From Chiloscyllium plagiosum (Eukaryota): a DNA stretch of 60,660 nt. The translations under genes were made by a program, and so were the position numbers. How positions within the stretch are numbered: the first letter of the stretch is position 1; every line of letters begins with the position of its first letter. The stretch is taken from the NCBI RefSeq assembly GCF_004010195.1, contig NC_057749.1:12970137-13030796 (forward strand), written 5' to 3'. Below, piece by piece: positions 3,562 through 50,899 of this stretch. The notes beneath the pieces were generated by a model. That model did no database searches and was not told the DNA's origin. It worked only from the letters and a program-made list of their open reading frames with translations.

Positions 3562-6500
3562 GTCAGAGTCCCAGATACTAACCCCCACCATCCTTTACCT
3601 TGCCCACCCACAACCCCCACAAACCCACCCTCTACCCCACCACCCACGAACCCCCTCAGTCACTACCTCTGCCACATTCAACCCTTCACCCTCATTACCC
3701 CCTCCCCCACCTGGTGGTCCTTTGACACTACCCCACCCACATTGCATTGTAAGGTTCAGGAAGGCATTGGAAAATAGCAATGATCAATCCTGAGTAAGAC
3801 AGTTTAACTGATGGACAGTGAACTGTGGTGGGGCAAGAACAGAGCTGGGCAGGATTGACTGGAACATAAGGGTTGGTGGTGAAACCATTACTGATTGATC
3901 AGCTGCCCTCAAAGAGGAGGTGGTTCAGGTACAGTCCCTCAAAACCAATCCCGAGTTCCCTGAATGAAAACTGAGATAGAGATTAAAATAAAGGAGAAAA
4001 AGTATAGTTATGGCAGTATCAGATAGAGAGTACAATTACAAACCGAAAGGAACACCATAGTGTGAGGAGAGATGGAAAAATACATTAGAGAAGTAAAAAG
4101 GGATTATGAGAAAGACTGGCAGCAAACATAAAAAGAAGTCTTCTGTAAGTACATCACCAGAAGAAAGATGGTAAAAGGAGGGATAAGGCTGATCAGGAAC
4201 AAAGAAAGAGCTTTACATTCTGGAGGCAGGAGGCATTGCTGTGGTGGATACTTTACACCTATCCTCTCCAAAGAGGGACATGTTACCCAGGCTGTGATGA
4301 CAGACGAGGAAACTTGGTCATGAGAAGTGTTCAAAATGGATGGATTAATGCTTAAAACTGATAATGCACCAAGACTGGATGAGATAAATCCAGGGCTATG
4401 GAAGGAGGTGAAAGTGGAAATTGCAGGGTCACTGAATAGAATCAGGGGAGGTGTCAGGAGACTGGAAAATTGCAAACATTACAAGCTTGTTCAAGAAAGT
4501 TGTTAGCAATCTCACATCTGGTAGGAAGGCTTCTAGGGACAAGTCAGGATAGAAGTAATAGTCACATGGAAAAAGATGGGTTGGTTATGTAGAGTGAGCA
4601 TGGATTTCTAAAGGGAAATTGTGTTTAACTGTTAATGGATCCAGAAAGCACTTGATACAGTGCCTCATGAGGCTTGTGAGGAAGGTCTTAGGTTTAAAAG
4701 AGACAACAGCAACATTGACCATGTGCTCGGAAACAGAGAGGAACGGTCAATGGCTGGAGGAAGGTTTGTTGTGAAGTTCCTCTGGGGTCAGGATGAAGAG
4801 CCCTGTTTGTCTGAGGCAGTTAATGATCTGGACCTGGATATGCAGGGGACAGTTTTTGAGTTTGCAGATAACAGTAAACTTGGATGAACCAGATATTTTG
4901 GAGCAGGTGGGACTTGAACCCAGACCTCCTGGCTCAGAGGTAGGGACAATACCACTGCACCACAAGAGTCCTTTGGAAGAATTGTCAACTATGAAAACAG
5001 CTGAGAACTTCATAAATACATTGATAAATTGGTGGAGCAGGTGGGTGGTGGCAAATAAAGTTTATTGTGGAGAAGTTAGGAAGAAAATTGAAAAATAATA
5101 TAAAATAGGGGGTCCAATTCTAAAGGGGATGTGGCACGAGCAGAGGGACCTGGGTGTGTGTGTATATGCAGAGATCATTGGAAGTACAAGGATAGGTAGA
5201 GAGAAGCTGAAAATGTGTTGCTGGAAGAGCGCAGCAGGTCAGGCAGCATCCAGGGAACAGGAGAATCGACCCCTGAAAGTAGGGCTCATGCCCGAAACGT
5301 CGATTCTCCTGCTCCTTGGATGCTGCCTGACCTGCTGCGCTTTTCCAGCAACACATTTTCAGCTATTGTGTACAGTCACAGGAAATATGTGAACATATTG
5401 GAGAGAGTGCAGAAGCAATTTAGAGGAACTGCTCCAGGAATGTGGAATTGGTGAAGTTAGGACTTATCACCTTTGAGAGGAAAAGGCTGAGATAAGATTT
5501 GGAGGTTTTCGTGAGTGGACTGGACAGAGTAGATAGGGCAGAGCTTTCCTTGTAAAAGGAACAAGAACAAGAGGGGATGGATTTAAAGCAGTGTGCAAAA
5601 GGAACAAATATGATGGAATAAAAATCCTTCTTCTGCAGCATGAGGAATTCTGTGAACTTATGATGCTGTTAGGGAGGAAATTCCAGGATTTCGACATAAC
5701 AATACTGCACTAATAGTGATATATTTCCAAGTCAAGATGGTGTACGACTTAGAGGGGAATTTGCAGGGGGATGGTATCTGCTGGCGTTGTCCTTCTCACT
5801 GGGAAAGGTCACAGGTTTGGAAAGAGCATTGGTGATTGGCCACAGCTTGGACCATTTCCTGTAGCAATGATGGAGGGAGTAAATGGGAACAAACTGATCA
5901 GGGAGTCAAATGTGTTGTTGTGGTGGAAGGGATTTGATTCCAGGACCACTGGGACTGTCACGGGAAAGAGAGAGTTGTTCCATTGTGACCAACTCCACTA
6001 AACTAGGCTGGGGCCTGTCTACTGTGTAACAGGCTGTCCATATTTTAAGGAGACGGTTCAAAGAAGGGGCATTTAGTAAATCTAAAAAGAAAAGTCAAAA
6101 CCATCGAGCTGTGTAGTGACTGGGTAAAAATAAGCAGGCAGCGAGTGAGAGAAAGGACCAGCAGATTTTGTGGTAAAATTACACCAATGAGGAAGGTTAA
6201 ATGATGGAAAAATAGTGAGAAGTTATTGCTGAAGGTGTTTATCTGACCCCAACAATCATCCCTCTGACTGAGTGACTGATGGCACCAATGAAGAGAAATG
6301 GATTGGATGTAATCCCTATTACAGAGCTGTGCTGGCACAGTGTCTGAGATTGGGAATTTCAGGAGATCTGACCTTTATCGAAGTGGGCCAATGGGTGGCC
6401 CTGACAATAAAGGATACAGGCAGGAGACAGGAGGGATCCTGATTTGGAAGAACAGGGCGTATCAGTAACAGCGAGGGTCAGAAATGCTGGTGAGAGCAGT

Positions 6501-9500
6501 TTCGAGGCCCCTGAGCAGTAACTATCCTGTTAGACAAAACATTAATCAGAAATAAAAGGAGCTTATAACAAAGTCAATGCAATAGTCTTGGGGACTTTAA
6601 TCTTCATGTGAACTGGGCAAAAGAAATTGGCAAAAATAGTTTGGCAATTGATTTATGGAATGCATTCAAGTTAGTTTCTTAGAACAATATATACTGGCTG
6701 TCCCTGTCCTGGGAGTGTTTGATGGGGACAGTGTAAAGGGAGCCTTATTCTGTATCTAACCCCGTGCTGTCCCTGTCTTGGGAGTGTTTGATGGGGAACA
6801 GTGTAGAGGAGGCTTTACTCTGTATCTAACCCTGTGCTGTCCCTGTCATAGAGTCATACAGCACGGAAACAGACCTTTCGGTCCAACCAGTCCATGCTGA
6901 ACATAATCCCAACTAAACTAGCCCCATGTGCCTGCTCCTGGCCCATATCCCTCCAAACCTTTTCTATTCATGTGTCATCCAAATGTCTTTTAAATGTTGT
7001 AACTGTGTCCACATCCACCACTACCTCGAATTCATTTCATGCATGAACTGCCCTCTGTGTAAAAAAATTTGCCCATCATGTCTTTTTGAAATCTCTCTCC
7101 TCTCACCTTAAAAATGTGCTCCCAATCTTGAAACTCCCCCCATCCCAGGGAAAATGCAACTACCATTAACTCGATCTAAAATGTCATTATTTTATAAACT
7201 TCTATCAGATCGCCTCTCAGCCTCCCCAGTGAAAAAACTCCCAGCCTTTCTTTATAACTCAAACCTTCCATACCTGGCAACATCCTGGTAAATCTTTTCT
7301 GAACCCTCTCCAGCTTAATAATATCCTTCCTATAACTGGGTGACCAGAACTAGACACAGTATTCCAGAAGAGGCCTCACCAATGTCCTGTACAATATCAA
7401 CATGACGTCCCAACTCCTATACTCAGAGGACTGAGCAGTGAAGGCAAGCTTGCCAAATACCTTTTTAACCACCCTGTTTGTGTGACACAAACTTTAAAGA
7501 ATTATGTACATGCACCCCTAGGTCCCTCTGTACTGTAACACTACCCAAGGGCTTACCTTTAATTGTATAAGCTCTACCCTTGTCTTAAAATGCAATAACT
7601 TGCATTTATCCAGATTGAACTCCATCTGCCATTTTTCAGCCCATTGACCCATTTGATCAAGATCCTTTTGTAATCTTAGAAAACCTTCACTGTCTACTAT
7701 ACCACCAATTTTGGTGTCGTCCACAAACTTACTAACCATGCCTTCTATATTCATATCCAGATCAGTTATATAACTGACAAACGAAAGAGAATCCAGGGCT
7801 GATCTCTGTGGAACACCACTGATCACATGCCTTCAGTCCGAAAAACAACCTTCCACCATTACTCTGTCTCCTGCCGTTAAGCCAACTATGGAAGCAATTG
7901 GCAAGCTCGTCCTGAATCTCATGTGACCTAACTTTACTAATCAGTCTACCAGGCGGAACTTTGTCAAAGGCTTTACTAAAATCCAAATAAACAACGTCTA
8001 CTGCTCTGCCATCATCAATCTTTTTGCTAACTTCCTCAAAAGAACTCAATCAAGTTTGTGAGACATGATTTTCCTTGCACAAAACCATGCTGACTATCCT
8101 TAATCAATTTTTGCCTCTCTAAATATCCATAAATCCTATCTTTTATAATTACCTCCAACAATTTACTCACATGTCTATAGTTCCCCGGTTTCTCCTTACA
8201 ACCTTTTCTTAAACAGAGCTGCAACATTAGCAACCCTCCAGTCATCAGGCACTTCACCTGTACTTGTAGATGATGCAAATATTTCAGCAAAGGGTTTCAT
8301 AAGTTCCTCCTTATTTCCCATAACGTTTTGGGATACATTAAATGAGGTTCCAGAGATTTAACCTGGAAGTGTTAGAGGGAGCCTTACTCTGTATATAACC
8401 TATGCTGTCCCTATCCCTGGTGTGTTTGATGGGGGACAGTGTAGAGGGAGCTTTACTCTGTATCTAACCTCATACTGTCCCTGTCCTGGGAGTGTTTGAC
8501 GGGGACATTGTAGGGGAAGCTTTACTTTGTATCTAACCCCGTGCTGTCCCTATCCTGGGAGTGTTTGATGGGGGGACAGTGTAGAGGGAGCTTTACTCTG
8601 TATCCATCCCTGTGTTGTCCCTGTCCTGGGAGTGTTTGATGGGGGACAGTGTAGAGAGAGCTTTACTCTGTATCTAACCTCATACTGTCCCTGTCCTGGG
8701 AGTGTTTGACGGGGACAGTGTAGGGGAAGCTTTACTTTGTATCTAACCCTGTGTTGTCCCTGTCCTGGGTGTGTTTGATGGGGGGACAGTGTAGAGGAAG
8801 CTTTACTCTGTATCTAGCCCTGTGCTGTCCCTGTCCGGGGAGTGTTTGATGGTGAGTGTGTAGAGGAAGCTTTACTCTGTATCTAACCCTGTGCTGTCCC
8901 TGTCCTGGGAGCTCGAGTTTTATTTTTGGAATGCAGGGGCAGGGGCAGGGGCAGGCCCTTCAGCCCCTTGAGATTCCTGCACCATTGAATCGGATCATGG
9001 CAGGATCCTCTTTTTTTTTAATTACCTACCCCCACCCCTCAACTCCTTTGGTAACCAGAAAACTATGAATCTCTATCTGACACAAACTGAATGCAAGACC
9101 CTGTGGTTTTCTGAAGCTGGCTTTTCTCAGTGCAGTCTCTTTGTGTTTTTTATTCTGGTTCAGTTTCTGATATCCATTTCCTTGAGGACACTTGCCTGTG
9201 AGCTGTCTGGTTCCCAAACACACACTGATGTCGCTCTGAAAATAGATCTGATATTCCCTGGTGAACGGAATGTAATTAGGGTGAGCACTAAGACCAGAGA
9301 AGGAACGTTAAAGGATTGGGAGATAATTACAGGACGATGTTGTGAGGTGAAATCACAAATAGATTTAATACCACCTTTTGACCTTCCATTGATCAGTCAC
9401 GTAAGTCTGGTCAGTCAGCAGCTACACTGGCCTCTTGTTTCTGTACACCTTCCCAATGCTGCTGACACCAGCCTGTTAATGGATTTGGGGTGGACCACAG

Positions 9501-12500: not shown

Positions 12501-15500
12501 TCTCAACCGAACCCAGCAGGTAATGGGCAGAGTGAAAGTTAGGTTGTGTTATTGTGGAGCCTGTACCTTGGGGCAGGAGGGAATTTTGAGGGGGGGCATT
12601 GTCGCACTGTCGGAGGGTCAGTGCTGAGGGAGTGCCGCACTGTCGGAGAGTCAGTGCTGAGGGAGCACCGCACTGTCTGGGGGTTTGGTGATGAAGGAGC
12701 GCAGCACTGTCGTGGATGAGGGGGGGTCAGTGCTGAGGGAGTNNNNNNNNNNNNNNNNNNNNNNNNNNNNNNNNNNNNNNNNNNNNNNNNNNNNNNNNNN
12801 NNNNNNNNNNNNNNNNNNNNNNNNNNNNNNNNNNNNNNNNNNNNNNNNNNNNNNNNNNNNNNNNNNNNNNNNNNNNNNNNNNNNNNNNNNNNNNNNNNNN
12901 NNNNNNNNNNNNNNNNNNNNNNNNNNNNNNNNNNNNNNNNNNNNNNNNNNNNNNNNNNNNNNNNNNNNNNNNNNNNNNNNNNNNNNNNNNNNNNNNNNNN
13001 NNNNNNNNNNNNNNNNNNNNNNNNNNNNNNNNNNNNNNNNNNNNNNNNNNNNNNNNNNNNNNNNNNNNNNNNNNNNNNNNNNNNNNNNNNNNNNNNNNNN
13101 NNNNNNNNNNNNNNNNNNNNNNNNNNNNNNNNNNNNNNNNNNNNNNNNNNNNNNNNNNNNNNNNNNNNNNNNNNNNNNNNNNNNNNNNNNNNNNNNNNNN
13201 NNNNNNNNNNNNNNNNNNNNNNNNNNNNNNNNNNNNNNNNNNNNNNNNNNNNNNNNNNNNNNNNNNNNNNNNNNNNNNNNNNNNNNNNNNNNNNNNNNNN
13301 NAGGGAGCGCCGCACTGTCCGGGGGGGTTGGTGCTGACGTAGGACCTCACTGTCGGGGGGGGGGGGGCGGTCGGTGCTGAGGGAGTGCTGCACTGTCGGG
13401 GGGGGGGGTCCACATTTGTGCCTCCCTCCTCCTCCTCCCCTCCCCCCACCATCCCACCCAACATTTATAAATGATGTGCTAGAATAAGGGGCAGTTGAAT
13501 AGAAATACACAATGCTGATTTCTGGGATGGAGGATTGACTTATCAAGAACATCTTATAATTTTTTCTCCCATGTTACTCTTCTCCAATTGGTTTGTCAGG
13601 TCAATGCAGGTTAAAATCGCCCATAACAATTTAAGTGCCCTTCTTACATACCTCCATTATCTTCTGATTAATATTTTGTCTCTTGTTTCTTTTTGACTTC
13701 CTTTTAATTGAAGTCTCCCACCAGTATTTAATTTAAAGCCATATCTACAACCCATGGTCCATAATTCGCCAGGACACAGGTGTCAGCAAAGTTCAAGTGA
13801 AGCTCTTCCTGTTTCCCCAGAGCCACAAGAATCTGTTTGTCCCATCCCGATTTGCATGTGGCACAGCTAGTAATCCTGAGATTCACTTTTTCAGTTCTGC
13901 TTTTTAATGTTGCCTTGAGCTGCTCTCAATCCCTCGGCAGAACCTTTCACCTTGTCCTAACTATGTGGGTAGTAACAATGTTGACCATGACAATTGGATC
14001 TCTTCCCCTCCCATTCCAAATTTCTTATCATCTCTGGAGAGCTGACTTGAAACTTGGCTTTGGATGGACAGTGCAGCCTTCCAGACTCTCAGCAGAGGAC
14101 AGTACAGTCTCCCACTGCATTTCTTTTCTCTTCCCCCACGTATTGCTCTTCTGGACCATGGCTCTTTGGTCATTTTGGAGAAAGTAAGGACTGCAGATGC
14201 TGGGGATCAGAGCTGAAAATGTGTTGCTGGAAAAGCGCAGCAGGTCAGGCAGCATCCAAGGAGCAGGAGAATCGACGTTTCGGGCATGAGCCCTTCTTCA
14301 GGAATTTCCTCATTCCTGAAGAAGGGCTCAAGCCCGAAACATCGATTCTCCTGCTCCTTGGATGCTGCCTGACCTGCTGCGCTTTTCCAGCAACACATTT
14401 TCAGCTCTTTGGTCATTTTGTTTGTCCTCCCTGCACTATGTCCTTGGTTCCCCCCCTAGGAGCAGGAGTAGGGCTTAAGCCCGAAACGTCGATTCTCCTG
14501 CTCCTTGGATGCTGCCTGACCTGCTGTGCTTTTCCAGCAACACCCACTCGACTAGGAGTAGGCCATTCGGCCCATCAAGCCTGCTCCACCATTCAATAAG
14601 AACATGGCTGAGCTTTTCGTGAACTCAGCTCCACTTACTCACCCTCTCATCATAACCTTAATTCCTTACTGTTCAAATTTCTATCTTTACCTTAAAAACA
14701 TTCAACAAGGTAGCCTCAACTGCTTCACTGGGCAGGGAATCTGACAGATTCCCAACCCAATGGGGGAAGAAGTTCCTCCTCAACTCAGTCCTAAACCTGG
14801 TTTGAGGCTATGACCCCTAGTTCTAGTTTCACCCACCAATGGAAACAATCAGTCTACACAATCTCTCCTCACTAGGTAACCCTCTCAACTCTGGAATCGG
14901 AACCCTCTGCAGACTTTGTGTCCTCTGCACACCTTCCTCTCCCACTCGTCTTAGTGTCTTCTATGAACTTTGACACACTACACTTGGTCCCCAACTCTAA
15001 TTGATGTAAATTGTAAATAATTGCAGTCCCAACGATGATCCCTGATCACTGCTGGAAACATGTCTTTGTAATGTCTCTGTTGGGACCTCAAGATCCCCTT
15101 CGGTTAATCGGTATTCAGATAATCGTGGTTCCCTTGTGTTCCTTTTTTTAAATTACTTGCTGCATGTGCAAAGCAACCGTCTGTGATTCATGCCCAAGGA
15201 TACCCAGGTCCCTCTGCACAGCAGTGTGCTACAACTTTTCCCCATTTAAATAATAGTCCATTTTGCTGTTACTTCTACCAAAATGGATGACCTCACATTT
15301 ACCAACATTGTACTCCATCTGCCATGCCCATTCACAAGCTATCTCTAACCCTCTGCAGACTTTGTGTCCTCTGCACACCTTCCTCTTCCACTCGTCTTAG
15401 TGTCTTCTATGAACTTTGACACACTACACTTGGTCCCTAACTCTAATTGATGTAAATTGTAAATAATTGCAGTCCCAACAATGATCCCTGAGGCACACCA

Positions 15501-18661: not shown

Positions 18662-22724
<4,063 letters not shown>

Positions 22725-25105: not shown

Positions 25106-25258
25106 AATGGAGAATGGCAGTGGGGAGCGAGCAGGGGAATGGAATCAAGTTGAATAAGTCAAAGAGCCAGCTCACCACTGTTGGCAATGAGATTTTTGTG
25201 GGGCAGTGGGTAGTGACCCTTGCTCTGAGCCAGTGGATTTTGCTTCAAGCCATGACAT

Positions 25259-25350
25259 TCCTGAAGAAGGGCTTATGCCTGAAACATCGATTCTCCTGCT
25301 CCTTGGATGCTGCCTGACCTGCTGCACTTTTCCAGCAACACATTTTCAGC
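25259..25350 (+). mobile_element. 92-bp solo pLTR unit carrying a hammerhead motif; 14-bp TSD
   Basis: TSD tcaagccatgacat at 25245-25258 and 25351-25364; CTGAAGA at 25261-25267, GAAA at 25281-25284. Confidence 0.8.
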
Positions 25351-25896: not shown

Positions 25897-27417
25897 GAGT
25901 CATAGAGTCATAGGGATGTATAGCATGGAAACAGATCTTTGGTCCAACCTGTCCATGCCGACCAGATATCCCAAACCAATCTAGTCCCACTTGCCAGCAC
26001 CTGGCCCATTTCCCTCCAAACCCTTCCTATTCATATACCCATCCAAATGCCTTTTAAATGTTGCAATTGTACCAGCCTCCACCACATCCTCTGGCAGCTC
26101 ACTCCATACATGTACCACCCTCTGCATGAAAACATTGCCCCTAAGGTCTCTTTTATATCTTTCCCCCCTCACCCTAAACCTATGCCCTCTATTTCTGGAC
26201 TCTCCCACCCCAGGGAAGAGACTTTGCCTATTGCCCCTATCCATGCCCCTCATGATTTTATAAACCTCTATAAGGTCACCCCTCAGCCTCCACACTCCAG
26301 GGAAACAGCCCCAGCCTGTTCAGCCTCTCCCTGTAGATCAAACCCTCCAACCCTGGCAACATCCTTGTAAATCTTTTCTGAACCCTTTCAAGTTTCACAA
26401 CATCTATCCGATAGGAAGGAGACCAGAATTGCACGCAATATTCCAACAGCGGCCTAACCAATATCCTGTACAGCCGCAACATGACCTCCCAACTCCTGTA
26501 CTCAATACTCTGACCAAGAAAGGAAAGCATACCAAACGCCTTCTTCACTATCCTATCCACATGTGACTCCATTTTCAAGGAGCTATGAACTTGCACTCCA
26601 AGGTCTCTTTGTTCAGCAACACTCCCCAGAACCTTATCATTAAGTGTATAAGTCCTGCTAAGATTTGCTTTCCCAAAATGCAGCACCTCGCATTTATCTG
26701 AATTAAACTCCATCTGCCACTTCTCGCCCATTGGTCCATCTGATCAAAATCCTGTTGTAATCTGAGGTAAACCTCTTCGCTGTCCACTACACCTCCAATT
26801 CTGGTGTCATCTGCAAATGTATTCACTATACCTCTTACGGTCACATCCAAATCATTTATATAAATATTGAAAAGTAGAGGCCCAGCACCAATCCTTGTGG
26901 CACTCCTCTGGTCACAGGCCTCCAGTCTGAAAAACAACCCTTCACCACCACCCTCTGACTTCTACCTTTGAGTCAGTTCTGTATCCAAATGGCTAGTTCT
27001 CCCTGTATTCCGTGAGATCTAACCTTGCTAACCAGCCTCCCATGGGGAACCTTTTCAAAGGCCTAACTGAGGTCCATACAGATCATGTCCACTGCTTTGC
27101 CTCATCAATCCTCTTTGTTACTTCTTCAAAAAACTCAATCAACTTTGTCAGACATGATTTCCCACGCATAAAGCCACGTTGACTATCCCTAATCAGTCCT
27201 TGCCTTTCCAAATACATGTACATCCTGTCCCTCAGGATTCCCTTCAACAACTTGTCCAGGCTCACTGACATCAGGCTCACTGGTCTATAGTTCCCTGGCT
27301 TGTCTTTACCACCCTTCTTAAACAGTGGCACCGTGTTAACCAACCTCTAGTCTTCCTGCGCCTCACCTGTGACTATTGATGATACAAATATCTCAGCAGG
27401 AGGCCCAGCAATCACTT
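25897..27417 (-). mobile_element. Relatively young 5'-truncated CR1-clade LINE RT
   Basis: VPLFKKGGKDKPGNYRPVSL, IYINDLD..FADDTRIGG, LVRPLLEYCVQFWSP; (ctatgact)n tail; several frameshifts. Confidence 0.93.
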
Positions 27418-27418
27418 A

Positions 27419-29135
27419 GAGGAGAAAGTAAGGACTGCAGATGCTGGAGATCAGAGCTGAAAATGTGTTGCTGGAAAAGCGCAGCAGGTCAGGCAGCATC
27501 CAAGGAGCAGGAGAATCGACGTTTTGGGCATAAGCCCTTCTTCAGGAATGAGGAAAGTGTGTCCAGCAGGCGAAGATAAAAGGTAGGGAGGAGGGACTTG
27601 GGGGAGGGGCGTTGGAAATGCGATAGGTTGAGGGAGGTCAAGGTGAGGGTGATAGGCCGGAGTGCGGGTGGGGGCGGAGAGGTCATGAAGAAGATTGCAG
27701 GTTAGGAAGGTGGTGCTGAGTTCGAGGGATTTGACTGAGACAAGGTGGGGGGAGGGGAAATGAGGAAACTGGAGAAATCTGAGTTCATCCTTTGTGGTTG
27801 GAGGGTTCCTAGGCGGAAGATGANNNNNNNNNNNNNNNNNNNNNNNNNNNNNNNNNNNNNNNNNNNNNNNNNNNNNNNNNNNNNNNNNNNNNNNNNNNNN
27901 NNNNNNNNNNNNNNNNNNNNNNNNNNNNNNNNNNNNNNNNNNNNNNNNNNNNNNNNNNNNNNNNNNNNNNNNNNNNNNNNNNNNNNNNNNNNNNNNNNNN
28001 NNNNNNNNNNNNNNNNNNNNNNNNNNNNNNNNNNNNNNNNNNNNNNNNNNNNNNNNNNNNNNNNNNNNNNNNNNNNNNNNNNNNNNNNNNNNNNNNNNNN
28101 NNNNNNNNNNNNNNNNNNNNNNNNNNNNNNNNNNNNNNNNNNNNNNNNNNNNNNNNNNNNNNNNNNNNNNNNNNNNNNNNNNNNNNNNNNNNNNNNNNNN
28201 NNNNNNNNNNNNNNNNNNNNNNNNNNNNNNNNNNNNNNNNNNNNNNNNNNNNNNNNNNNNNNNNNNNNNNNNNNNNNNNNNNNNNNNNNNNNNNNNNNNN
28301 NNNNNNNNNNNNNNNNNNNNNNNNNNNNNNNNNNNNNNNNNNNNNNNNNNNNNNNNNNNNNNNNNNNNNNNNNNNNNNNNNNNNNNNNNNNNNNNNNNNN
28401 NNNNNNNNNNNNNNNNNNNNNNNNNNNNNNNNNNNNNNNNNNNNNNNNNNNNNNNNNNNNNNNNNNNNNNNNNNNNNNNNNNNNNNNNNNNNNNNNNNNN
28501 NNNNNNNNNNNNNNNNNNNNNNNNNNNNNNNNNNNNNNNNNNNNNNNNNNNNNNNNNNNNNNNNNNNNNNNNNNNNNNNNNNNNNNNNNNNNNNNNNNNN
28601 NNNNNNNNNNNNNNNNNNNNNNNNNNNNNNNNNNNNNNNNNNNNNTCTCTTTCCAATCCTCCCACTTCCTCCAAACCAAAGGCGTAGCCATGGGCCCCAG
28701 CTATGCCTGCCTCTTCGTAGGATATGTGGAACAGTCCATCTTCCGCAGCTACACTGGCACCACTCCCCACCTTTTCCTCTGCTACATCGATGACTGTATT
28801 GGTGCTGCCTCGTGCTCCCACGAGGTGGTTGAATAGTTCATCCACTTTACCAACACCTTCCACCCCGACCTCAAATTCATCTGGACTGTCTCAGACTCCT
28901 CCCTCCCCTTCCTAGACCTCTCCATTTCTATCTCGGGCGACCGAATCAACACGGACATTTATAAACCGACCGACTCCCACAGCTACCTAGACTACACCTC
29001 CTCCCACCCTGCCCCCTGTAAAATGCCACCCCATATTCCCAATTCCTTCGTCTCCGCCGCATCTGCTCCCAGGAGCACCAGTTCCAATACTGAACAACCT
29101 AGATGGCCTCCTTCTTCAAAGACCGCAATTTCCCC
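27419..29135. mobile_element. Penelope-like element with inverted pLTR (-) and RT fragment (+), gapped
   Basis: (+) FLQTKGVAMG.PSYACLFVG..YIDD; (-) IFRLGTLQP endonuclease tail and pLTR with hammerhead remnant at 27514-27548. Confidence 0.88.
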
Positions 29136-36059: not shown

Positions 36060-36145
36060 GGATGCTGCCTGACCTGCTGCGCTTTTCCAGCAACACATTT
36101 TCAGCTCTGATCTCCAGTATCTGCAGTCCTCACTTTCTCCTCGAA
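36060..36145 (+). mobile_element. Penelope pLTR fragment
   Basis: ggatgctgcctgacctgctgcgcttttccagcaacacattttcagctctgatctccag. Confidence 0.75.
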
Positions 36146-36604
36146 GGTTAAACCTGACCAAAGGATTTCTCTGTCACTGGCACCAGGTTTGAGACAGTGG
36201 AGGCTGTATCTGATCCGAGTGAATCTTTATACAGGCTGTATCTCCCAGTCTCAAATAACAGACCTTTACAGAAATGGAATGTGACTGTGACAAAGGGAAC
36301 CCAGTTTCCTCCTGATTCTCAAGCTGCAGATAGGGAGGTGGGTGAGTGGAGGGGTGAAGGTGAAGCGAGTGGGAAGGAGATGGAGGGAGAAGGGAGGGGA
36401 GGAGGGGAGTAGATGGTGAAGCCTGGGCTGCAGGGTGACAGTAACCCATCCATGGCCATTTACGAGTGGGATAGTAACATCGCCATTGACCAGAAGGTGA
36501 ACTGGACTGAGCAGAACAAAACCCGGGGGAGTGGCAAGTGGGGAGTGACTCACCTTCAAACCTCTTAACCACCTCAAGTCAGGACAGGACAGGAATAGGG
36601 ATGC

Positions 36605-49709: not shown

Positions 49710-50312
49710 GACAGTGCGGCACTCCCTCAGCACTGACCCTCCGACAGTGTGGCACTGCCTCAGCACTGACCCTCCGACAGTGCGGCACTGCCTCAGCACT
49801 GACACTCCGACAGTGTGGCACTCCCTCAGCACTGACCCTCCGACAGTGTGGCACTCCCTCAGCACTGACCCTCCGACAGTGCGGCACTCCCTCAGCACTG
49901 ACCCTCCGACAGTGCGGCACTCCTTCAGCACTGACGCTCCGACAGTGCGGCACTCCCTCAGCACTGACCCCTCAGTACTGACCCTTCAACAGTGCAGCAC
50001 CCCCTCAGCACTGACCCTTCAACAGTGCCCACTCCCTCAATACTGACCCTCCGACAGTGCAGCACTCCCTCAGCACAGACCCTCTGACAGTACAGCACTC
50101 CCTCAGCACTGACCCTCCAACAGCGCGGTACTCCCTCAGCACTGACTCTCTGACAGTACAGCACTCCCTCAGCACTGACCCTCCAACAGCGCGGTACTCC
50201 CTCAGCACTGACTCTCCAACAGCGCGGCACTCCCTCAGCACTGACTCTCCGATAGTGTGGCACTCCCTCAGCACTGACCCTCCGACAGTGCGGCACTCCC
50301 TCAGCACTGACC
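49710..50312 (+). repeat. 33-bp minisatellite, about 18 units
   Basis: cagtgcggcactccctcagcactgaccctccga in tandem. Confidence 0.95.
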
Positions 50313-50447
50313 TTGCGGCAGTGGGATTATTTTGATGTTGTAATAATCCTGGATTGTGTACTGAGCCTCTGTGACTGATTGCTGTGGGACTATATTTACT
50401 GAAAACAGAAAGCATTTGTCTGAAGTGAGTCAACCCATAGTTGTAAA

Positions 50448-50643
50448 CTTCGAGGAGAAAGTGAGGTCTGCAGACGCTGGAGATCAAAGCTGGAACAGCA
50501 CAGCAGGTCAGGCAGCATCTAGGGAACAGAAGATTCGACGTTTCGGGCACATTCCTGAAGAAGGGCATGTGCCCGAAACGTCGAATCTTCTGTTCCCTAG
50601 ATGCTGCCTGACCTGCTGTGCTGTTCCAGCAATAAAGTTTCAG
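50448..50643. mobile_element. Fold-back Penelope pLTR derivative with intact hammerhead motif; 13-bp TSD
   Basis: TSD ccatagttgtaaa at 50435-50447 and 50644-50656; inverted arms. Confidence 0.85.
50551..50586 (+). ncRNA. Minimal type I hammerhead ribozyme motif
   Basis: ATTC CTGAAGA a gggc atgt gccc GAAA c GTC GAAT; 4-bp stem I, palindromic ACGT stem III. Confidence 0.8.
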
Positions 50644-50899
50644 CCATAGTTGTAAAGTCAAATGTTGGGGTTCATATCCAATTCCACATCTCCATCCTGT
50701 ACTTACAATATCCCACTGAGCTGCTTGGTGTGTGTTTTATGGACGATCCGAATGCTGTGTTGTATTCCACAGATTCAGCTGCCTGTCTTCATGACTGAGT
50801 TATCACTGGGCGCCAAATCTGTTATCATGATCTGAAACCCAAAGTACTTTGGACATTTTTAATTTTTCAATCCCCAAATGTGTATTTTAAAGGAGAATG

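Follow-up and report, generated by a model that had tools for sequence, protein, structure and literature searches.

The fold-back element at positions 50448-50643 of the window, i.e., of the whole 60,660-nt stretch of Chiloscyllium plagiosum contig NC_057749.1 that was analysed here, is very probably a dead by-product of the integration of a Penelope-like element (PLE), made of two 5'-truncated copies of the ribozyme-bearing PLE end that were joined head to head in one integration event. More generally, fold-backs of this kind most likely represent a common dead by-product of PLE integration in this genome, as opposed to a new mobile family driven by its ribozyme. The "ribozyme element" of the window would then be integration debris, one of tens of thousands of such pieces in the genome, and recognizing it as such removes a tempting false lead.

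Anatomy of the element

Sequence reading and a repeat finder agreed with the anatomy that an earlier note on this DNA had described for the 196-bp element. A 13-bp target site duplication (TSD; CCATAGTTGTAAA, left copy at 50435-50447 and right copy at 50644-50656) encloses two inverted arms of 67 nt each (50489-50555 and 50564-50630), which the repeat finder reports as 99% complementary with an 8-nt spacer, and no ORF lies inside the element, the three overlapping ATG-initiated ORFs of at least 20 aa each extending into the flanks. Inverted arms, a TSD and the lack of an ORF are also what a miniature inverted-repeat DNA transposon (a MITE or fold-back element) would show. We rejected this reading, whose probability we consider negligible, because the inverted repeat is not terminal (a 42-nt unique tail stands on one side), the TSD is of variable length (10-17 bp), and both arms are PLE sequence that ends at PLE reverse-transcription start sites.

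Positions in the PLE sequence (x) are numbered here from the core base C3 of the ribozyme (x = 0, at 50555); on this scale cleavage at the predicted site would create a 5' end at +28. From the left, the element begins with six nucleotides (50448-50453, minus strand) that are the reverse complement of TCGAAG, the bases that follow the tail in full PLE units (locus L070 served as the contiguous natural reference), and continues with the 36-nt PLE "tail" in antisense (50454-50489, minus strand; x = +89 to +124, by comparison with PLE copies) and the antisense arm itself (50490-50552, minus strand), which runs from x = +74 down to +12 and ends in the loop of ribozyme stem II. The antisense copy as a whole (50448-50552) covers x = +130 down to +12, including the tail and six further PLE bases, and lacks 14 nt (x = +75 to +88) at a deletion flanked by direct CAG repeats; its reverse transcription appears to have started 6 nt past the usual tail end. 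The sense arm (50550-50643, plus strand; x = -5 to +88) contains the whole minimal hammerhead ribozyme, extends as far as the first reverse-transcription start site, and has no tail; the tail is confined to the left, antisense arm. Common to both arms is the trinucleotide CAT at 50550-50552, a microhomology that marks the junction referred to as J1 below. Just upstream of the element lies a 33-bp minisatellite (49800-50323; two overlapping rows in TRF, 5.2 copies at 95% matches and 10.8 copies at 85%), which generates a spurious 187-aa minus-strand ORF beginning inside the fold-back.

The hammerhead motif

The sense arm carries a minimal type I hammerhead motif (ATTC-CTGAAGA-A-GGGC-ATGT-GCCC-GAAA-C-GTC-GAAT; 50551-50586, plus strand), identified by sequence reading and pattern matching exactly where the earlier note had placed it. 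Stem I is formed by ATTC/GAAT, and the catalytic boxes are present, i.e., the core CTGAAGA at 50555-50561, GAAA at 50575-50578 and GTC at 50580-50582. An unpaired, bulged A at 50562 (between A9 and G10.1) precedes stem II (GGGC-ATGT-GCCC), in which GGGC at 50563-50566 pairs with GCCC at 50571-50574, including the G10.1-C11.1 pair. C17 corresponds to C50582, and the cut is predicted directly 3' of this base, also as the note had it. Helix III is absent, and the palindrome ACGT (positions 15.2-16.2) at 50578-50581 would permit a dimer.

To call this a "textbook" hammerhead was an overstatement, given the extra A between A9 and G10.1, the absence of helix III and the outcome of the Rfam scan that the note had proposed: no hammerhead model matched at gathering score in the window or at E<=10 in 50350-50750, where the relaxed scan gave sub-threshold miRNA-like hairpin matches, a few other weak ones, and nothing else. 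The silence of Rfam on the motif is likely due to the missing helix III. The assignment to the minimal type I hammerheads of PLE pseudo-LTRs (pLTRs), on the other hand, holds up well. The hallmarks of metazoan PLE ribozymes according to Cervera and de la Pena (2014, PMC4209133) are found here, namely both catalytic boxes (CUGANGA and GAAA), an unpaired base ahead of stem II, the G10.1-C11.1 pair, the palindromic 15.2-16.2, a short helix I and no loop 3, and the motif sits in the repeated end of the PLE, after the ORF and 3'UTR of PLE copies. It differs from the Schistosoma families in the same source in that stem II is 4 bp rather than 7-8 bp long.

The motif is far more abundant than expected by chance, since the 3.56-Gb genome contains 88,166 exact occurrences of the pattern CTGANGANGGGCNNNNGCCCGAAACGTC and none of the reversed control pattern, and the window itself holds four matches at up to three mismatches vs. 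none in 100 shuffles. This copy number is about ten times the 4,000-9,000 given for coelacanth and Xenopus (PMC4209133). Further, the motif is apparently maintained by selection in the PLE lineages, because the ribozymes of two of them (termed F2 and A) are identical at 25 of 28 positions, differing only at N7 and in loop II, where the sequence upstream is identical at only 23 of 56. The earlier note had let its reading depend in part on whether the core is more conserved than its flanks, and across these lineages it is: the ribozyme clearly exceeds the upstream sequence. The arm block at +45 to +77 (30 of 33 positions identical) is conserved equally with it.

The copy studied here is a different matter. 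The predicted fold of the element's plus-strand RNA is a single hairpin (MFE -153.0 kcal/mol), a ribozyme-forming fold is predicted to lie 38 kcal/mol above it, and the minus-strand RNA has no CUGANGA box. Under this folding model, the hammerhead at 50448-50643 is a PLE passenger that the 67-bp hairpin would lock if it were transcribed. Nothing indicates that the ribozyme acts in this copy. A candidate closing helix, CUGAAG (x = 0 to 5) with UUUCAG (x = 83 to 88), was also considered and set aside; it is present in lineages A and F1, absent from F2, and probably due to chance.

In one polyA single-cell RNA run, whose library type is unsuited to mapping RNA 5' ends, 616 reads fell on such repeats, on both strands, and a second run contributed 0 reads. 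Unrelated sequence follows the repeat in 88% of these reads, no pile-up of read ends was seen (a library of this type cannot settle cleavage), and the sole joint that "goes back" was supported by three reads of this one run and unsuited library. At one locus (L066:1441; x = +87, the arm end), 60 reads of the run diverge into a T run on the plus strand, with a consensus agreement of 0.57. The T run corresponds to A's after the arm on the sense strand, AATAAA lies 8 nt before the arm end in the young lineages, and arms with AATAAA may supply polyadenylation sites.

The strong hairpin raises the question of a hairpin-RNA gene, i.e., that read-through transcripts fold into the 67-bp perfect stem and are diced to small RNAs directed against the PLE recognition module. 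The MFE of -153 kcal/mol, the reads on both strands of such repeats in the one RNA run, and the miRNA-hairpin matches in Rfam, sub-threshold only, are what it would lead one to expect; nonetheless, we judge it very unlikely, as the best of these matches (mir-1791) scores 40.3 bits against a gathering score of 75 and the structure is fully accounted for by its mode of formation. A microRNA precursor as such was rejected, there being no curated Rfam family at gathering score.

The source of the two arms

The window contains PLE remnants at 27.4-29.4 and 31.8-33.6 kb, and their ends bear the same module as the element, in which a minimal ribozyme of 28 nt is followed by an arm of ~60 nt and a tail of ~36 nt. 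On the sense strand the order at these ends is 3'UTR, ribozyme, ~60-nt arm ending in ...TTTTCAG, and 36-nt tail ending in ...CACTTTCTCC. The module occurs twice per PLE unit, once directly ahead of the region in which the ORF starts and once at the 3' end, and in full units the tail continues into TCGAAGATTTC..., followed ~45 nt on by an ATG that opens the reading frame. ORF fragments of the window align to an 893-aa protein with precomputed Pfam domains including RVT_1 (reverse transcriptase, RT) and GIY-YIG, over residues 327-503 at 56% identity (1e-65) and residues 565-627 at 52% (5e-19). A Pfam search with three short window ORF fragments found no domain, and the readable part of the window, which is interrupted by large N blocks, shows no GIY-YIG segment. 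Of the RT/GIY-YIG that the earlier note had reported in the window, the alignment of ORF fragments to such a protein is thus supported, and the GIY-YIG segment itself is not seen in the readable letters.

The closest match to the element, however, is not to these remnants. The sense arm is identical at 94 of 94 positions to a long A-type PLE copy (stem II loop ATGT); the antisense arm, its tail and the six further nucleotides are identical to long A-type copies save for the one 14-nt deletion; and long copies exist in the genome in which the PLE 3'UTR stands upstream of the same ribozyme. The PLEs in the window share only 76-86% identity with the element and are older relatives rather than the source lineage. 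The source would be the young, A-type PLE lineage, and the copy at 50448-50643 is itself very young; having no substitutions, it may still be polymorphic among individuals. The note's proposal that the window PLEs had mobilized the element therefore captured the module common to their ends and missed the lineage. Similarly, mobilization by PLE as such is borne out, in that the sequence is PLE-derived and the variable-length TSDs point to PLE-type reverse transcription, but not as that of a non-autonomous family.

The lineages also differ in the form of their copies. F2 is a second abundant PLE lineage (CTGATGA, loop TTTT, distinct 3'UTR) with longer copies at 10 of 12 sampled loci and few short fold-backs, and lineages F1, A and B showed short arms or fold-backs at 15-16 of 18 sampled loci. 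On one contig (C1), three ORF-less short PLE units (L070, L083 and L084) have three differing deletion junctions and the layout tail, ~113 nt of 5' region, last ~12-35 nt of the 3'UTR, ribozyme, arm and tail; two of them adjoin an N block that presumably contains a full PLE. By their sequence they look like template jumps over the ORF, and they come nearer to a "retrozyme-like" unit than the fold-back does. Within the window, a PLE 3' part at 27415-27830 (minus strand; ORF end, 3'UTR, ribozyme with G12 changed to A, arm and tail) faces an RT fragment at 28648-29020 (plus strand) across an N block, and the pair may be a large version of an inverted-plus-direct arrangement.

A recurrent junction

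A genome search with the element gave 400 candidates, of which 40 were scored, and all of these 40 were near full length. The top 30 of them were examined, and every one (30/30) was flanked by a TSD of 10-17 bp (median 14). The J1 junction (GGGCA-CAT-TCCTGAAG) was present in 29 of these 30 best-scoring copies and the undeleted 210-bp form in 28. This set was picked by likeness to the query and is thus biased toward one junction and one tail configuration. Genome-wide, J1 has 71 exact copies compared to 1,922 A-type ribozymes and 22,289 arms of the A and B types.

On their face, these data could be explained by a self-propagating, non-autonomous fold-back family, that is, a master fold-back that is transcribed, recognized in trans by the PLE enzyme, and copied as a unit. 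The junction is common to at least 38 near-full-length copies whose TSDs all differ; the 71 exact J1 copies are spread over many contigs; and the differences between sub-lineages A and B are mirrored in both arms. We inspected 20 further J1 places outside the 30-copy set (14 of the 71 J1 places lie outside the inspected sets), and the tail was found on the same arm in 16 of them. That is, the tail was on the short arm in 16 and on the long arm in two, a skew that exceeds the 12:8 of random pairs and, like the one junction and one tail configuration shared by the best 30 matches (clone-like, yet picked by similarity), speaks against the by-product reading.

Nevertheless, we consider such a family unlikely, for several reasons. 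The same 20 places comprised 13 with the configuration of the window copy, two with the tail on the other arm, three with a shortened arm and their own TSD, and two rearranged otherwise, and they belonged to lineage B in 17 cases and to the older lineage F1 in three. J1 is hence found in three lineages (A, B and F1) and in both tail configurations, which indicates, as far as the copies can tell, a recurrent junction for which clonal descent is unlikely. Its recurrence can also be rationalized, since a cDNA extended as far as CATTCC has an end able to pair with the CA/CAT of the stem II loop. No substitution was private to the J1 copies relative to long PLE copies, and the arms are letter-for-letter those of long copies of the young PLE. 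The mirrored A/B differences are automatic if both arms were copied from one PLE RNA, as expected under that model. In addition, other junction classes equal or exceed J1, which accounts for 71 of ~22,000 arms, and fold-backs with many other junctions are common. Finally, a plus-strand transcript of the fold-back would stop at the tail-less site, without downstream PLE sequence, whereas the template of the Anolis PLE needs ~55 nt beyond the start site (PMC11167929). For these reasons, the independent non-autonomous family proposed in the earlier note finds no backing here, and we favor fold-backs as by-products of PLE integration.

Fold-backs and copy ends across the genome

An arm-based census covered the first 100 places of an arm 30-mer (22,289 exact occurrences genome-wide), all on one contig and corresponding to 78 loci. 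Among these loci there were 22 pairs in (-,+) order, 58-359 nt apart; no (+,-) or same-strand arm pairs within 400 nt occurred among the 100 places. Exactly one arm was tailed in all 20 fold-back pairs that were analysed. Their junctions fell at many positions, with a 1-4 nt overlap of the arms in 16 and filler in four; one junction type recurred four times among the 20, in both tail configurations, and other junction classes were as frequent as J1 or more so. Random samples of ribozyme loci gave the same fold-back picture.

Three additional fold-backs, all from older PLE lineages and each with its own junction distinct from J1, lie in the window, at 5207-5362, at 14177-14404 (plus 14467-14540; TSD CTCTTTGGTCATTTTG) and at 19369-19555 (plus 19574-19649), together with a solo arm at 25255-25349 (older lineage, TSD CTCAAGCCATGACAT) and an arm-plus-tail fragment at 36061-36146 (older lineage). 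Among these three fold-backs, one carries ribozymes on both strands, and another has its junction precisely at the stem II loop and contains no complete ribozyme. The fold-back at 5207-5362 has the tail on neither arm, which counts against the by-product reading.

The 3' ends of 87 arms lay at x = 84-96 in 34 cases, at x = 121-137 in 49, and between these ranges in only four; that is, integrated copies end at two sharply defined 3' sites, ~+88 (tail-less) and ~+125 (tailed). The 5' ends of 47 unpaired arms, mapped by ungapped extension, in which microhomology with the target blurs positions by 1-4 nt, lay at -7 to +2 of C3 in 26 cases and at +20 to +29 in six, the remainder being scattered, and none of the 47 lay at the predicted cut (+28). 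Nine of 56 unpaired loci stand outside this count, four being long copies and five ending at about -5 to 0. At two loci the sequence jumps at the 5' end, at L032 to the sequence of another retrotransposon and at L098 to another PLE position, which fits the 5' end of an RNA, where template jumps are expected. At L032 the PLE arm is joined at its 5' end to what appears to be coding sequence of the other retrotransposon.

These patterns bear on whether the element is a metazoan (non-LTR) retrozyme, in which tandem hammerhead units are transcribed, self-cleaved and circularized and subsequently reverse-transcribed by a PLE. Animal non-LTR retrozymes (Cervera and de la Pena 2020, PMC7229834; Li et al. 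2026 preprint) are likewise PLE-related, hammerhead-bearing, ORF-less and a few hundred nucleotides long, they have been proposed as PLE dependants (PMC7229834; bioRxiv 10.64898/2026.07.22.740005), and the element, with its PLE-type type I hammerhead, no ORF, and a size inside the 170-400 nt range, resembles them in these respects. Yet retrozymes are arranged in tandem and yield circular RNAs in which the ribozyme is free, whereas the element consists of one inverted pair, carries only one sense ribozyme and lacks a tandem unit, and same-strand arm pairs within 400 nt numbered zero among 100 places. Its ribozyme is buried, locked by 38 kcal/mol in the predicted fold, while most metazoan retrozyme circles leave the ribozyme free according to PMC7229834, and its ends coincide with PLE reverse-transcription start sites and not with ribozyme cut sites. 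The label "retrozyme-like" given by the earlier note is thus misleading, and a retrozyme origin appears most improbable.

A model for the origin of fold-backs

The preferred reading, two truncated PLE copies joined during one integration, would involve the following steps, of which the 5' end of the RNA and the order of events are inferred, while anatomy, counts and identity to PLE copies were read directly. The template would be a PLE RNA whose 5' end, to judge from the DNA copies only, lies ~3 nt before the ribozyme and may be a transcription start within an initiator-like YYATTCC. Both target strands would be nicked by the PLE enzyme ~14 bp apart, and each would prime reverse transcription, one of them at the tail site and its partner at the tail-less site; the two short antisense cDNAs would then extend toward the RNA 5' end. 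There they would be joined head to head by 1-4 nt of microhomology, in the present case CAT in the stem II loop, giving tail, antisense arm and sense arm within a TSD.

Several of these steps have counterparts in previously described systems. PLE insertions are often accompanied by a neighboring 5'-truncated copy in inverted orientation and by a tail of 30-40 bp on one of their ends (PMC8557442). The complex insertions described by Craig et al. (2021, PMC8557442) share with the element the inverted-plus-direct arrangement, heavy 5' truncation, variable TSDs, a tail at one end only, and a hammerhead in the repeated end; they differ in extent, as both copies are cut here to 77-94 nt with only the ribozyme/arm module left, for a total of 196 bp. 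In vitro, the enzyme of the Anolis Poseidon PLE cuts both strands of the target and extends both (Frangieh et al. 2024, PMC11167929). It initiates reverse transcription at two neighboring internal sites, the stretch between which is the tail, and the RNA that it inserts is unprocessed (PMC11167929). The two start sites correspond to the 3' ends at ~+88 and ~+125 seen here, and the cleavage and extension of both strands to the two-strand priming proposed here. The same study reports insertion without a need for hammerhead cleavage and no reads ending at the cut site (PMC11167929). The two systems differ in that the Anolis ORF starts inside the ribozyme, whereas the likely start codon here, inferred from the reading frame, is ~45 nt past the tail, and the portions of that study available to us contain no description of head-to-head short products (PMC11167929).

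The regularities found across the genome, i.e., two 3' end sites ~37 nt apart, a tail on exactly one arm of a fold-back, and 5' ends that cluster immediately ahead of the ribozyme, with none at the cut, provide in vivo support, from a distant vertebrate, for the mechanism inferred in vitro with the Anolis PLE. These regularities in the genomic copies also argue that hammerhead cleavage does not shape the integrated templates, even though the motif is kept by selection in PLE lineages. Further, a fold-back origin offers a simple source for the "dual min-HHRs ... in opposite strands", 100-700 bp apart, that were noted in 2014 along with many solitary motifs from truncated PLEs (PMC4209133).

The proposed event is also akin to a process in another class of retrotransposons, albeit with a clear distinction. 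Inversions that human L1 produces by twin priming use the second target strand as a further primer on the same RNA and join the inverted 5' part by microhomology, and their two parts derive from adjacent RNA regions. In the element, one and the same region was copied into both arms, starting at two defined sites.

A broader interpretation, to which we assign a low probability and which is offered as speculation, is that solo arms and fold-backs are run-off products on a PLE RNA that starts ~3 nt before the hammerhead. The ribozyme could then be a 5'-terminal switch between messenger and template, its cleavage stripping the cap and the first 31 nt, rather than a processor of tandem transcripts; the one-tail rule could reflect coupled two-strand priming by a dimeric PLE enzyme in vivo; and the perfect hairpins, thousands in number, could feed small-RNA silencing of the PLE recognition module.

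Other features of the window

ORF fragments of another reverse-transcriptase family (...FADDTKIGG...WQMEFNSDKCEVLHFGK...) occur on both strands at 24.4-27.3 and 25.9-26.8 kb, which resemble LINE (CR1/L2-type) remnants. The sole Rfam match at gathering score in the window is a SNORA79 H/ACA snoRNA gene at 20244-20387 on the minus strand, which scores 127.9 bits compared to a gathering score of 55.
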